Shown here in pieces: positions 3,436 through 41,782 of a DNA stretch of 43,020 nt. Position 1 is the first letter of the stretch, and every line of letters begins with the position of its first letter. A program made the position numbers and the translations under genes. Source of the stretch: a virus. Its lineage: Duplodnaviria > Heunggongvirae > Uroviricota > Caudoviricetes. Under the pieces are notes generated by a model. It did not search any database and was not told the DNA's origin. It saw only the letters and a program-made list of their open reading frames with translations. The stretch lies in IMG/VR virus record IMGVR_UViG_2585427786_000006; one strand, given 5' to 3'.

Positions 3436-3610
3436 TATCGCGTCCTCAACAATGAATTTTGTGATGCAGTGCCTGGTGCCTCCAGGTGACGTTAACCAGT
3501 TAACAATTAACGCCGGATACAGAGAATCCACCCATAACACTGTTTTTGGTTTTAACTGTTCCGCGTGCGCTTAGCCGCATTCACCGCATCACAAAATTCA
3601 CTTTAAAAAC

Positions 3611-3662
3611 GGCGGCAGAGCAGTCACGGAGTAAAACTGATACCGCCAAACGTCACCAGAAA
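3611..3662 (-). ncRNA. dicF: DicF small RNA
   Basis: Reverse complement reads TTTCTGGTGACGTTTGGCGGTATCAGTTTTACTCCGTGACTGCTCTGCCGCC followed by GTTTTT, recognised as DicF with its intrinsic terminator. Confidence 0.8.
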
Positions 3663-4828: not shown

Positions 4829-5236
4829 TTATTGATGCTTGTTGCGTTTGCGAGCCTCTAATAGCTCGGTGAACAGGCGATTAAAATTCTCAACGCGGGC
4901 GCGGAGTTCGCTGAGTTGTGCTTGTTGCTCTGATTTAGGAAGTGCGCGATACAAACGCAGCATCTCTAACTCATCTTCCGATAAGTCTAAGGCACTATCG
5001 AGTGAAACAGGGGGAGCTGGTGTTTTGTCCTCGTCGCCAAACAGTATCCAGGTTGGTGAACATTGCAATACCTCGGCGAGGCGATGCAAATTTTGCCCAC
5101 GCGGGGCTGTATGGTCACTTTCCCATAATGAAATTGATGAGCCAGATACGCCAGCAGCTTTGCTTAAACCGTTTTGACTTAAGCCTACCTGCTTACGTCT
5201 TTCTCTAATGCGTTGACCTAAAGTTTTCTCGTTCAT
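4829..5236 (-). CDS. dicA: DicA-like HTH (XRE-family) repressor (135 aa)
   Basis: N-terminal HTH; C-terminal ...LQCSPTWILFGDEDK... and ...RARVENFNRLFTELLEARKRNK recognised as DicA-like; divergent from dicC. Confidence 0.8.
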   Translation of the reverse strand: MNEKTLGQRIRERRKQVGLSQNGLSKAAGVSGSSISLWESDHTAPRGQNLHRLAEVLQCSPTWILFGDEDKTPAPPVSLDSALDLSEDELEMLRLYRALPKSEQQAQLSELRARVENFNRLFTELLEARKRNKHQ

Positions 5237-6046: not shown

Positions 6047-6848
6047 ACGCCCACTGGTTATAAACACACAGCTTGCGATGAAGATTGGCTTAAATGAAGC
6101 CATTGTGTTGCAGCAGTTGCATTACTGGTTGAGAGATACCAATTCCGGCATGGAATGTGATGGTGTTCGCTGGATTTACAACACAACGGAACAATGGCTG
6201 GAACAGTTCCCATTCTGGTCAGAGTCAACGTTAAAGCGCGCGTTTGCAAGTCTGAAAACGCTGGGGCTTTTGCGTTGTGAAAAGCTCAATAAATCAAAGC
6301 GCGATATGACCAATTTCTACACGATCAACTATGGGAGCGAGCTTTTAGATGGTGGCAAATTGAACGAATCCATCGGTTCAAAATGCGCCGCTCCATCAGG
6401 TCAAAATGACACGATGGAAGAGGTCAAAATGAAACGCTCCATTGGTTCAAAACGACCCAATGTCATCGGGTCAAAATGGCCTGATGATCTTACAGAGAAT
6501 ACAACAGAGATTACTACAGAGAATAAAAACACTTTTCGTCCGGAAGCTTCGCAACCGGACCTGCAGACCGCTGAACAGGATTTTTTAATCCGGAACCCCG
6601 ACGCGGTTGTGTTTAGTGCGAAAAAACGCCAGTGGGGTAGCAGGGAGGATTTGGCGTGTGCGCAGTGGATTTGGGGGCGGATCGTGAACCTTTACGAACA
6701 GGCTGCCTTTAAGGAGGACTTGTGGCAAAAGTTTTTACACAGGAAGAGCGGGAAAAAATTAAAGAGCAGGTGGTCGAACTTGTGCGCCAGAGCGGTCGCG
6801 AGACATTACGACAGTTGGAAGCTAAAACAGGTGCGACAAGATATCTGA
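6027..6848 (+). CDS. replication initiator (replisome-organizer N-terminal domain), contains origin iterons
   Basis: MSLLFAERPLVINTQLAMKIGLNEAIVLQQLHYWL... typical of phage replisome organizers; iteron array lies inside the gene as in lambda O. Confidence 0.6.
   Translation: MSLLFAERPLVINTQLAMKIGLNEAIVLQQLHYWLRDTNSGMECDGVRWIYNTTEQWLEQFPFWSESTLKRAFASLKTLGLLRCEKLNKSKRDMTNFYTINYGSELLDGGKLNESIGSKCAAPSGQNDTMEEVKMKRSIGSKRPNVIGSKWPDDLTENTTEITTENKNTFRPEASQPDLQTAEQDFLIRNPDAVVFSAKKRQWGSREDLACAQWIWGRIVNLYEQAAFKEDLWQKFLHRKSGKKLKSRWSNLCARAVARHYDSWKLKQVRQDI
6370..6479. repeat. origin iterons: five copies of about 15 bp (consensus CATCGGGTCAAAATG), followed by an AT-rich ACAGAGA-repeat segment (6480-6530)
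   Basis: Direct repeats at about 6370, 6393, 6416, 6439, 6463 spaced 23-24 bp apart, encoding repeated IGSK peptide motifs. Confidence 0.55.
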
Positions 6849-7826: not shown

Positions 7827-8003
7827 ATGGCTGATTTTGGTTCAACTAAATACAACGTCGGTTTTGAAGAATGGCATGAACTGTTAATGGACTATGCAGA
7901 GTTACGTGGTGGCAGTGCTGCTGATGCTGAAGCATGGCGTGATGATTATGAAGCAGGAAAAACTCCGGTCGAAGCATATTGTGATGAGTGGGGCGATGAA
8001 TGA
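7827..8003 (+). CDS. hypothetical acidic small protein (58 aa)
   Basis: GAGGAAG RBS 7 nt before ATG; MADFGSTKYNVGFEEWHELL...; stop overlaps the next ATG (ATGA). Confidence 0.35.
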   Translation: MADFGSTKYNVGFEEWHELLMDYAELRGGSAADAEAWRDDYEAGKTPVEAYCDEWGDE

Positions 8004-8485
8004 GCGAGGTTAATTATCAGGAAGGGCATGAAACGGCGGGGCAAGCAAAAACAGTGGCATGGCGATATCGCTACGTGAAAAAAAGGCGTTACGGACTTTC
8101 AGGGGAAGTAGTGGTCTGGTGACTGGAAATATGTACCGAAAAAAGAGGATTGTAACGATAGGCCGAACTATGAAATTCAGGCCTTATTCACTGCCCCGCC
8201 AGTCCCGGTTACATCAGAAGAACTGGTTAAAGCTGTGCACTTTTATGAACAACTAAAACGCGAAAATCCACCAGCATCCGGAAACCTGATTACAGGTTCC
8301 CAGATAAGGCAATGAGCTACCTGGCGCAGAACGGGCTGATAAGTATGGGGAATGTTTTACGATGAATATTTAGACTAAAGAGTTTGTAACGCTATGTAAG
8401 TGATTTTTTCTGGTTTAGATATTTATATGTCCGGCTAAATTGAGGTGTGTTTAAATGTTATTGCACATTGATTGTAGGGGGAATA

Positions 8486-8665
8486 ATGAAAAACGCATTG
8501 CAGTTTTTGTTTGTTGCGTTCTGGTTGTTCGCATCATGTATGCCCATCATCTTCACAGCAAGGTATATGGAAAAAGTTGATGTTTTGATATTAATATTTG
8601 GATATATAAATGCCCTTTTTTTAGGGGTGTTCATGGCGGTCATGTGCATTGAATACTGGCGGTAA
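8486..8665 (+). CDS. small two-TM membrane protein (59 aa)
   Basis: MKNALQFLFVAFWLFASCMPIIFTARYMEKVDVLILIFGYINALFLGVFMAVMCIEYWR; GGGGGAATA then ATG; AT-rich local composition. Confidence 0.45.
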   Translation: MKNALQFLFVAFWLFASCMPIIFTARYMEKVDVLILIFGYINALFLGVFMAVMCIEYWR

Positions 8666-8922
8666 ATACAGCGAACTCCATTGGTTTAGTTGGATATTTA
8701 CTGTGCTGGACAAAACGGTTTGCGGGGAAATCTTAGTTAAGTAGAATGACTGCGGGTGCTTGAGGCTATCTGCCTCGGGCACGAACACCAACGGCAGGTA
8801 GAGAAAAGCCCCAGTTAACATTACGCGTCCTGCAAGACGCTTAACATTAATCTGAGGCCAATTTCATGCTAGACACATGTAGGTTAGCCTCTTACGTGCC
8901 GAAAGGCAAGGAGAAGCAGGCT

Positions 8923-9078
8923 ATGAAGCAGCAAAAGGCGATGTTAATCGCCCTGATCGTCATCTGTTTAACCGTCATAGTGACGGCACTGGTAACGAGG
9001 AAAGACCTCTGCGAGGTACGAATCCGAACCGGCCAGACGGAGGTCGCTGTCTTCACAGCTTACGAACCTGAGGAGTAA
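8923..9078 (+). CDS. hokD: Hok-family type I toxin (51 aa)
   Basis: MKQQKAMLIALIVICLTVIVTALVTRKDLCEVRIRTGQTEVAVFTAYEPEE recognised as HokD/RelF; AAGGAG RBS; in-frame upstream extension from ATG 8866. Confidence 0.8.
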   Translation: MKQQKAMLIALIVICLTVIVTALVTRKDLCEVRIRTGQTEVAVFTAYEPEE

Positions 9079-9146
9079 GAGACCCGGCGAGGGAGAAATC
9101 CCTCGCCACCTCTGATGTGGCAGGCATCCTCAACGCACCCGCACTT

Positions 9147-9173
9147 AACCCGCTTCGGCGGGTTTTTGTTTTT
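9147..9173 (+). terminator. intrinsic terminator at the 3' end of the hok mRNA
   Basis: CCCGC-TTCG-GCGGG hairpin followed by T-run; preceded by a second hairpin 9086-9107 (candidate fold-back element). Confidence 0.6.
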
Positions 9174-16394: not shown

Positions 16395-16757
16395 ATTAAT
16401 ATTAAATCGGATTATTTTTAGCGCTGAATGTGAAATTTAAATAAAAAGGACTCTTCCATGAGTCAAAATCCTTGAAATCTTAAGGGTAAGATAAAAGGTC
16501 ATTAGACAGAATGACACGTTTTATTAATAAATAAAGCTATTGTTTCATTCGTGTGTTTTTCTTTACAAAAGTAATCCTTGCTATGGTTGGTTAATCATGC
16601 GTTAATGGTGTTCTGGTTTGTTACAAAATTATCTGAAGCAGTCATTGTTATAATTTTATTATTTGTACCTCTTGAGATTTCCTTGTTGGTTTTTCTCTCT
16701 GATATTTTTTTTCGGACCATTCTGCCCAAGGGCTAACTTCTTCAAAAGGTAATAATG

Positions 16758-16970
16758 ATGTCTAACAAAATGACTGGTTTAGTGAAATGGTTTAACCCTG
16801 AAAAAGGTTTTGGTTTCATCACGCCGAAAGATGGTAGCAAAGATGTGTTTGTCCATTTCTCAGCTATTCAGAGCAACGATTTCAAAACGTTAACTGAGAA
16901 TCAGGAAGTCGAATTTGGTATTGAGAACGGACCTAAAGGCCCCGCGGCTGTTCATGTTGTGGCACTTTGA
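16758..16970 (+). CDS. cspI: cold-shock protein CspI-like (70 aa)
   Basis: [39 protein letters not shown]... with RNP motifs; long AT-rich 5' leader upstream. Confidence 0.85.
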
Positions 16971-17169
16971 GGTAGAAAATATTACAAACCATATTCACTT
17001 TAGATGCCCGTGTTGCCATGGTTCTCAGTATAGAACATCATCTTTTGATGTTTCTGACAGGAATCCTTTCGGGGCAAAATGTATCTTTTGTAAATCAATG
17101 ATGATTACATTTGATAATATTTCACAATACTTAAATGTTAGCCGTCTGTCGTTAGATTTAAGAAAGTGA
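16954..17169 (+). CDS. YnfN-like Cys-rich small protein
   Basis: ...[54 protein letters not shown]; ATG overlapping the cspI 3' end; start uncertain. Confidence 0.4.
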
Positions 17170-41207: not shown

Positions 41208-41782
41208 TGGTATTCAGAATGAGTGAACAACCACGGACCATAACAATTTATAATCTGCTGGCCGGAACTAATGAATTTATTGGTGAAGGTGATGCATATA
41301 TTCCGCCTCATACAGGTCTGCCAGCAAACAGTACCGATATTGCACCGCCAGATATTCCGGCAGGCTTCGTGGCTGTTTTCAACAGTGATGAGGCATCGTG
41401 GCATCTCGTTGAAGATCATCGGGGTAAAACGGTTTATGACGTGGCTTCCGGCGACGCGTTATTTATTTCTGAACTCGGTCCGTTACCGGAAAATGTTACC
41501 TGGTTATCGCCGGAAGGGGAGTTTCAGAAGTGGAACGGCACAGCCTGGGTGAAGGATACGGAAGCAGAAAAACTGTTCCGGATCCGGGAGGCGGAAGAAA
41601 CAAAAAACAACCTGATGCAGGTAGCCAGTGAGCATATTGCGCCGCTTCAGGATGCTGCAGATCTGGAAATTGCAACGGAGGAAGAAATCTCGTTGCTGGA
41701 AGCATGGAAAAAGTATCGGGTATTGCTGAACCGTGTTGATACGTCAACTTCACAGGATATTGAATGGCCAGCACTGCCGTAG
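41207..41782 (+). CDS. tail fiber assembly protein (Tfa)
   Basis: M(V/A)[42 protein letters not shown]...; TAATG overlap with stf stop. Confidence 0.85.

Follow-up and report, generated by a model that had tools for sequence, protein, structure and literature searches.

Positions 8720-9173 of the 43,020-nucleotide stretch of phage DNA analysed here (hereafter the window) very probably form a complete and apparently intact hok/mok/sok type I module, in which an allele of hokD is accompanied by its native regulatory region. The hok/mok/sok locus itself is already known, being annotated in phage 933W and experimentally characterised in Sp5. The initial annotation of the window, made from the sequence, had described a toxin frame identical to HokD/RelF with an in-frame upstream extension and a structured 3' end, and had suggested that a Sok-like antisense RNA might be encoded in 8700-8925. 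The three descriptions hold, and an antisense gene is now predicted within that interval. The elements of the module are the following.

8720-8747, plus strand: putative hok promoter, read from the sequence (-35 TTGCGG at 8720-8725, 16-nt spacer, -10 TAGAAT at 8742-8747)
8754-9173, plus strand: predicted full-length hok mRNA of ~420 nt (5' end from the start of the Rfam model, 3' end from the terminator)
8754-8765, plus strand: tac element GGGUGCUUGAGG at the 5' end of the mRNA, pairing with fbi and present in the tac/ucb stem of the Rfam alignment
8808-8812, plus strand: ucb or anti-SD box GCCCC, pairing with the mok Shine-Dalgarno (SD) sequence in the predicted full-length fold and present in the Rfam consensus
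8854-8857, plus strand: mok SD GAGG, 8 nt upstream of the mok ATG (from the sequence and from the SD/dcb stem of the Rfam alignment)
8866-9078, plus strand: mok frame of 70 codons, mokW/mokC type (list of open reading frames, mokW annotation, PHROG 251)
8923-9078, plus strand: hok toxin gene, 51 aa (Pfam PF01848, identity to HokD/RelF, RefSeq hokD)
9128-9140, plus strand: fbi (fold-back inhibition) element CCUCAACGCACCC, pairing with tac in the MFE structure and in the ensemble
9147-9173, plus strand: intrinsic terminator of the hok transcript, from a terminator scan
8874 to 8804, minus strand: predicted Sok-like antisense RNA of ~71 nt, placed by mapping the sokW misc_RNA of 933W onto the window
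8909 to 8881, minus strand: predicted Sok promoter, from the sequence and its identity with 933W (-35 TTGCCT at 8909-8904, 17-nt spacer, -10 TAACCT at 8886-8881)

Reading frames and prophage context

The product of the hok gene is 100% identical to HokD/RelF of K-12 in a tblastn comparison; it matches the Pfam family HOK_GEF PF01848 with E=3e-23 (81.6 bits for a cut-off of 22), and the coding sequence carries the RefSeq name hokD (WP_000813254.1). The toxicity of HokD/RelF is known from older literature. The upstream extension starts at the ATG at position 8866, in frame with hok, and the two frames end at a common stop codon; the resulting 70-aa product is of the Mok type and matches PHROG 251, 'MokW-like host killing', with E=7.7e-33. 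The mokW gene of 933W is annotated in the same manner, in frame with hok and with the same stop codon.

The surrounding 43 kb are a Qin-type lambdoid prophage. The copy in E. coli strain CP53 (NZ_CP033096), identical in sequence, carries int/xis, an exonuclease gene, dicB, a dicA/dicC-type immunity region and tail genes, and is inserted at ydfJ, like Qin in K-12; Rfam also identified DicF in the window. A ren-like gene is found upstream of hok, and homology with K-12 Qin and with phage vB_EcoS-640R1 places rem, ydfU and a gene for a Q-type antiterminator after hok; the module is thereby located between the replication genes and Q. Many complete E. coli chromosomes contain the segment 8380-9173 with 100% identity, and its RefSeq annotation there consists of the hokD coding sequence only. 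The module points the same way as early rightward transcription, and the Sok promoter is convergent to it. Judging from this context, read-through driven by induction could interfere with the convergent Sok promoter.

The hok mRNA and its predicted folding

Transcription of hok is predicted to start at ~8754, at a suitable distance from the putative promoter, and both hexamers of this promoter are conserved in 933W and in E. coli variants. The promoters of hok and Sok are weak matches to the consensus and were positioned manually and from homology; a stringent promoter scanner detected neither of them. The Rfam covariance model RF01794 matches positions 8754-8928 over its full length with 107.8 bits (gathering score 59, E=1e-23). 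The model is named 'sok' but has the orientation of the hok mRNA and stops at the hok AUG; when applied to an R1-type IncFII plasmid locus, it matches the hok sense strand in the same orientation with 87.2 bits. We therefore conclude, from this orientation and from the match on the R1-type plasmid, that RF01794 really models the leader of the hok mRNA.

Structure prediction of the leader was a check that the initial annotation had proposed. In the window, both the tac/ucb and the mok-SD/dcb helices are kept in the RF01794 alignment, the latter through pairing of the mok SD with GCCUC at 8887-8891, and the ucb box belongs to the conserved 'AAAAGCCCC' of the consensus. The full-length mRNA has an MFE of -172.7 kcal/mol (z = -7.5 with respect to shuffles). 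In its predicted fold the two distant elements tac (8754-8765) and fbi (9128-9140) are paired, with a P(unpaired) of 0.01 for tac, and the P(unpaired) of the mok AUG, which is 0.08 in the full-length molecule, is predicted to rise to 0.55 once 48 nt are cut from the 3' end; in the 3'-trimmed mRNA, tac and the 5' end are predicted to refold locally. The tac/fbi helix shows a compensatory change, GGUGC/GCACC in the window versus GGCGC/GCGCC in the R1-type locus. Combined, these predicted changes of fold reproduce the fold-back-inhibition logic of R1, for which a model of tac, fbi, ucb and dcb is available (PMC9841398).

The 3' region is structured beyond fbi, with a perfect hairpin at ~9086-9107 and a terminator made of a 7-bp stem (9147-9164) containing 5 GC pairs and closed by a 4-nt loop, followed by a T-run. 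An identity of the hok 3' UTR with IsrK was considered and rejected, the match reaching 25.7 bits for a gathering score of 50 and reflecting a generic two-hairpin resemblance.

A predicted cis-encoded Sok RNA

The sokW coordinates of 933W map to 8874 to 8804 on the minus strand. The RNA delimited in this way is predicted to begin with a single-stranded 5' tail of 15 nt, followed by a long hairpin and a terminal UUUU, with a folding energy between -28.7 and -30.6 kcal/mol (z = -5.3), and its 5' tail is complementary to the mok start region. The segment 8875-8925, which includes the Sok promoter, is base-for-base identical to 933W, and the primers YO-421/422 used to build the promoter-less sokW construct alter exactly this -10 hexamer (PMC8621323). 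The 5' recognition region differs from that of sokW at ~7 positions; because the RNA is encoded in cis, it is still perfectly complementary to its own target. These features, together with the leader match described above, indicate that the window carries a predicted cis-encoded antisense Sok gene with its own promoter.

Comparison with known hok/mok/sok loci

The closest characterised relative is the hokW/mokW/sokW locus of 933W/Sp5 (AF125520), 92.7% identical at the DNA level over positions 8712-9150 of the window. It is also borne by a lambdoid prophage and shares with the window the promoter, tac, ucb, an in-frame mok, a 71-nt Sok and fbi. The two loci differ in several respects. The C-terminus of Hok reads …FTAYEPEE in the window and …FVDYESEK in HokW of 933W, ~7 substitutions affect the mok-start / Sok 5' region, and homology stops at ~9150, the terminator sequence being different. 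The locus lies near the right end in 933W, whereas in the window it has the replication genes on one side and Q on the other, and 933W is devoid of the 59-aa open reading frame (ORF) found upstream of hok in the window (see below).

The architecture and the RNA logic are also those of hok/mok/sok (parB) of R1, the paradigm of type I toxin-antitoxin (TA) systems. The R1-type sequence and the window share as blocks tac, ucb, the mok SD, dcb with the Sok promoter, and the hok SD, whereas sequence similarity is otherwise patchy and R1 is a plasmid while the window is a prophage. As read from the R1-type sequence, mok and hok occupy different frames in R1 but share one in the window. A further locus with an in-frame arrangement is hokC/mokC/sokC (gef), in which MokC is an N-terminally extended HokC of ~69 aa; this locus is chromosomal in E. 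coli, does not belong to a prophage and has a different sequence.

HokW, a near-identical relative of the Hok encoded in the window, is 44% identical to Hok of R1 (PMC8621323). It is toxic, and sokW RNA, seen by Northern blot, neutralises it in a manner partly dependent on RNase III and Hfq, whereas mutation of the sokW -10 hexamer releases toxicity (PMC8621323). Upon induction of the Sp5 prophage sokW vanishes, HokW is then made and is located in the inner membrane, and phage release is halved when the hokW-sokW locus is absent (PMC8621323). Shorter hokW RNAs were also seen, and their authors leave undecided whether these correspond to the 3'-processed form (PMC8621323).

The relBE-hokD arrangement of K-12

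In K-12 Qin, 71 nt separate the end of relE from hokD downstream. The initial annotation had described the hok gene of the window as standing alone, without relBE, and a match of the upstream region to the 3' end of relE would contradict this. Searches by tblastn for RelB, RelE, FlxA and YdfV gave no match anywhere in the 43-kb window, and when a relE end was looked for by alignment, none was found upstream of ~8909; a relE remnant upstream of hok is thus ruled out. From ~8909, which corresponds to the hok SD, Qin DNA of K-12 and the window are nearly identical across hok, rem and ydfU, and they are identical as far as the end of the hok coding sequence. Upstream of this point, hokD of K-12 has no hok promoter, no tac or ucb and no mok start, and both the gene for the Sok RNA and the Sok -10 are missing. 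A cryptic leader retained in front of K-12 hokD was also considered and ruled out, as RF01794 has no match there even at E<=1.

The distribution of the two junctions was then compared among 5426 complete E. coli genomes. The junction between the leader and hok (8740-8960, at least 80% covered) is present in 4300 of them, versus 1174 for the relE-hokD junction of K-12, and from these counts the stand-alone hokD would be the norm and the ancestral state. A stand-alone hok is therefore the common form, and the window does not depart from the usual arrangement. Since homology with K-12 begins only at ~8909, the relBE-hokD arrangement is, as judged by comparison of these loci, a derived and truncated minority form whose sequence has been replaced in full up to the hok SD.

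The phage PhiR42_1, from ECOR13, shows what appears to be an intermediate state toward the K-12 arrangement. It carries the AT-rich ORF and a leader that is intact as far as the hok ATG (window position 8924), followed by an IS; after the IS come flxA-ydfV-relB-relE and then hokD from ~8909. The sequence GGAGAAGCAGGCTA, of ~14-15 bp, is repeated at both junctions. In E. coli EC590, a transposase gene of the ISNCY family cuts the leader at the same point as in PhiR42_1; the EC590 stretch that was examined ends before any flxA-ydfV-relBE-hokD could appear. More generally, prophages show an enrichment in hok genes (bioRxiv 10.1101/2025.08.07.668861).

A candidate small membrane-protein gene upstream of hok

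The region upstream of the module is AT-rich, with a GC content of 0.34-0.36 over 8325-8700 compared to 0.45-0.50 on its flanks. No credible known RNA family was detected in it, and the only hits were chance-level matches to snoRNAs. It contains the 59-aa protein with two transmembrane segments that the initial annotation had placed here, the frame beginning at 8486 and not at 8380.

8486-8665, plus strand: candidate gene for a 59-aa hydrophobic protein (list of open reading frames, hydropathy, comparison with a paralogue)

The two predicted transmembrane segments span residues ~4-25 and 31-55, and the GRAVY value is 1.27. A G-rich, Shine-Dalgarno-like run (GGGGG, 8477-8481) precedes the start codon; an upstream GTG at 8447 would lengthen the frame to 72 codons. 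The protein has no match in Pfam or PHROG (E<=0.01) nor in NCBIfam or PADLOC (E<=1), and its only relatives are hypothetical proteins of E. coli and Shigella. Scanning of the GTDB species representatives returned two Shigella loci only, tblastn against phages returned three Qin-lineage phages only, and PGAP/RefSeq never annotates the frame in the records that were examined.

These features leave room for the view that the frame is not a gene but a chance opening in an AT-rich, T-rich intergenic spacer. The longest stop-free run of the segment, 75 codons, is reached by 11% of mononucleotide shuffles (p = 0.11), so that the case for a gene rests on comparative evidence and not on length. A similarly long frame on the opposite strand (8458-8649, minus strand) is the one chosen by phage annotators, as 'hornerin' or hypothetical protein. 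Within the Qin lineage the four substitutions observed in the 59-aa frame are all nonsynonymous (A16V, V31I, I37M, Y40H), and frameshift variants are frequent at the C3-T7-A-G4 homopolymer runs (8613-8627). These observations, together with the missing PGAP call and family match, speak for a fortuitous frame.

The comparison with a paralogue argues against this view. An exhaustive HMMER search identified a second lineage (P0037/P0042) in which a frame of 59 aa, 41% identical at the protein level, aligns with that of the window free of gaps, from the same start to the same ...IE(Y/C)WR end, despite flanks full of indels. Between the two frames, identity by codon position is 0.58/0.69/0.47, the second position being the most conserved and the third the least, and the NG86 estimates of dN and dS are 0.47 and 1.98, that is a dN/dS of ~0.24. 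In tblastx of the paralogue region the plus frame gives the best identity of all frames (44%, versus 34% and 29%); the minus-strand frame was rejected on this basis, the plus frame being better conserved with respect to the paralogue. The paralogue occurs once per genome in 1045 of the 5426 E. coli genomes; in the probiotic strain Nissle 1917 it lies between ttcA and uspF, at the Rac attachment site, and is intact within an otherwise decayed prophage remnant. From these patterns we consider it likely that the 59-aa ORF is a real small gene, predicted to encode a two-helix membrane protein, and rather unlikely that it is a chance frame.

Synteny of the small ORF with hok

The initial annotation had also presented hok as paired with this small membrane-protein gene. 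As a recurring synteny the observation stands. About 55 nt downstream of the paralogue lies a hok fragment, 81% identical to window positions 8991-9052 and interrupted by an in-frame stop, and the remnant carrying the paralogue is also collinear with the ren-like gene of the window. The synteny between the ORF and hok is thus real and old; because collinearity reaches the ren-like gene, it is explained by the shared ancestry of the prophage backbone.

A functional reading of this synteny would make the 59-aa protein and hok a two-gene cassette, in which the small protein acts as a modulator or protector of Hok or as a second membrane effector. The ORF is indeed found directly upstream of hok in two lineages whose proteins are only 41% identical, on the same strand and with no terminator found in between. 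This conservation is however accounted for by the backbone itself, and frameshifted variants of the ORF adjoin intact hok genes. Moreover, hok/mok/sok occurs without the ORF in 933W, mEp460, HannyBb, Stx phages and plasmids, where homology to the window begins at 8712-8735; since the module exists elsewhere without the ORF, a functional pairing is unsupported. To our knowledge, hok systems have no known protein partner, which also counts against a cassette. We therefore regard such a cassette as very improbable, and give equally little credence to its broader version, in which the 59-aa protein and the paralogue at the Rac site form a conserved family of prophage small proteins working with hok/sok. 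If this were true, the small protein might be a modulator of Hok, an immunity factor against it or a second membrane effector released on induction, and the small ORF with hok/mok/sok would be a two-protein cassette and not a classical one-protein TA system. The ORF is probably a lineage-restricted gene for an inner-membrane protein that belongs to the same ancestral prophage segment but that the TA module does not require.

Discussion

By homology to R1 and to hokW-sokW of Sp5, the module of the window would operate as follows. A weak constitutive promoter would drive synthesis of the ~420-nt mRNA, in which pairing of tac at the 5' end with fbi at the 3' end would bury the mok start, allowing neither translation nor binding of Sok. 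Slow trimming from the 3' end would strip fbi, upon which the 5' end would refold and expose both the mok ribosome-binding site and the target of Sok. The unstable Sok RNA of ~71 nt (8874 to 8804) would then bind the mok start region and block translation of mok; the coupled translation of hok would be switched off, and the duplex formed with Sok would be marked for RNase III. When the supply of Sok ends, through loss of the element or induction of the prophage, Mok and Hok would be translated, and the 51-aa Hok would enter the inner membrane and collapse the membrane potential. By analogy with hokW-sokW, we expect the role of the locus to be killing after loss of the element, help in lysis upon induction, or both.

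Activity in vivo is not guaranteed, because the chromosomal loci hokA, hokB and hokC that were tested reportedly gave neither post-segregational killing nor activation by rifampicin. Together with promoters that are weak matches to the consensus, this behaviour would fit a locus that looks intact but is a silent relic, weakly or not transcribed, releasing no Hok and carried passively. Several observations make such a relic unlikely. All regulatory elements are intact and conserved, and no IS or rearrangement interrupts them, in contrast to EC590 and PhiR42_1. In addition, hokW-sokW, at 92.7% identity, is active and influences phage release, and the module has been kept in the 4300 genomes counted above. 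We thus favour an intact module over a relic.

The only mildly new item in this stretch is the unannotated candidate gene or family of small membrane proteins upstream of hok. For the hokD loci themselves, the RefSeq annotation, limited to the hokD coding sequence, conceals a complete hok/mok/sok module, and the textbook relBE-hokD arrangement of K-12 appears as a truncated exception. Automatic annotation could assign Sok and mok to hokD-type loci by using sokW and mokW as templates, and a candidate family of small membrane proteins, absent from RefSeq annotation, is carried by ~1570 + 1045 of 5426 complete E. coli genomes.

Coupling of mok and hok

In the window, as in the Stx2 phage 933W, mok extends hok in frame at its N-terminus. 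The arrangement differs in the hokD-type alleles compared, from E. coli strains TW10828, FDAARGOS_1260, C1, 2017C-4173W12 and STN0717-11 (loci L007-L011), where two indels (2 nt deleted, 1 nt inserted) in the region corresponding to window 8866-8925 place mok out of frame with hok. In these five loci mok is a 19-codon ORF, and its TGA stop and the hok ATG overlap as ATGA, a termination-reinitiation layout. Two different mok-hok coupling geometries are thus found among closely related alleles.

The hok leader is also covered by an Rfam model, RF01794. Although named "sok antitoxin", it matches the sense strand of hok and the model ends at the hok AUG (window 8754-8928); the same orientation and the same end at the hok AUG were found in the R1-type plasmid locus (L013, 332-503). 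As the model is sense to hok, strand calls derived from RF01794 should not be taken as the Sok strand.

Within the hok coding region, the Tyr47 codon TAC and the G after it form a UACG motif (window 9061-9064, within CUUACGAA); only the presence of the motif is recorded here. In the literature, A-to-I editing of UACG by TadA, with recoding of Tyr to Cys, is described for hokB and likewise for hokC, hokD and hokE. Further downstream, the hok 3' UTR (window 9087-9168) gave a sub-threshold match to IsrK (RF01394), a Salmonella prophage sRNA family, scoring 25.7 bits where the gathering threshold is 50 (local search, E=0.003); K-12 shows this match too, at 5030-5111 of locus L005. This likeness is probably a generic resemblance, the two sharing two hairpins and a terminator.

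The small ORF and its surroundings

The 59-aa ORF upstream of hok (window 8486-8665) contains a frameshift hot spot formed by the homopolymer runs CCC-TTTTTTT-A-GGGG (8613-8627). In many variants from the databases these runs have gained a T or a G, or have lost one C, and such indels alter or truncate the C-terminus. Immediately upstream of the AT-rich segment, a frameshifted pseudogene occupies window 8000-8365 and is in the same state in CP53; other strains carry an intact counterpart, e.g. the hypothetical protein WP_001289994.1 of about 171 aa.

A paralogue of the small ORF, also of 59 aa and with 41% identity, is present at 829-1008 of locus L014 and at about 6130-6430 of the Nissle 1917 locus (L017). 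It sits between ttcA and uspF, inside the remnant of a decayed prophage, and is followed by a hok pseudogene fragment. Although 1045 of the 5426 E. coli genomes carry it, RefSeq leaves it unannotated.

Other Rfam matches in the window

3610-3661, minus strand: DicF antisense sRNA (RF00039, 72.5 bits)
16600-17016, plus strand: cspA-type thermoregulator 5' UTR (RF01766, 109.8 bits), together with a cold-shock gene
41550-41748, plus strand: IS009, full-length match within the tail-fibre region (RF02111, 220.9 bits)

DicF is expected in a Qin-type prophage, and the cold-shock element has its counterpart in the cspB/cspF-type genes of Qin.

IS insertion at the hok start codon

The hok start codon is the exact point of IS insertion in phage PhiR42_1 (L006, 985-1000 and 4255-4285) and in E. 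coli EC590 (L012), where the insertion is annotated as an ISNCY-family transposase. In PhiR42_1 flxA-ydfV-relBE comes next after the IS, with hokD behind it, and a repeat of about 14-15 bp (GGAGAAGCAGGCTA) is present at both junctions. This layout appears to capture the relBE-hokD arrangement of K-12 in the making.
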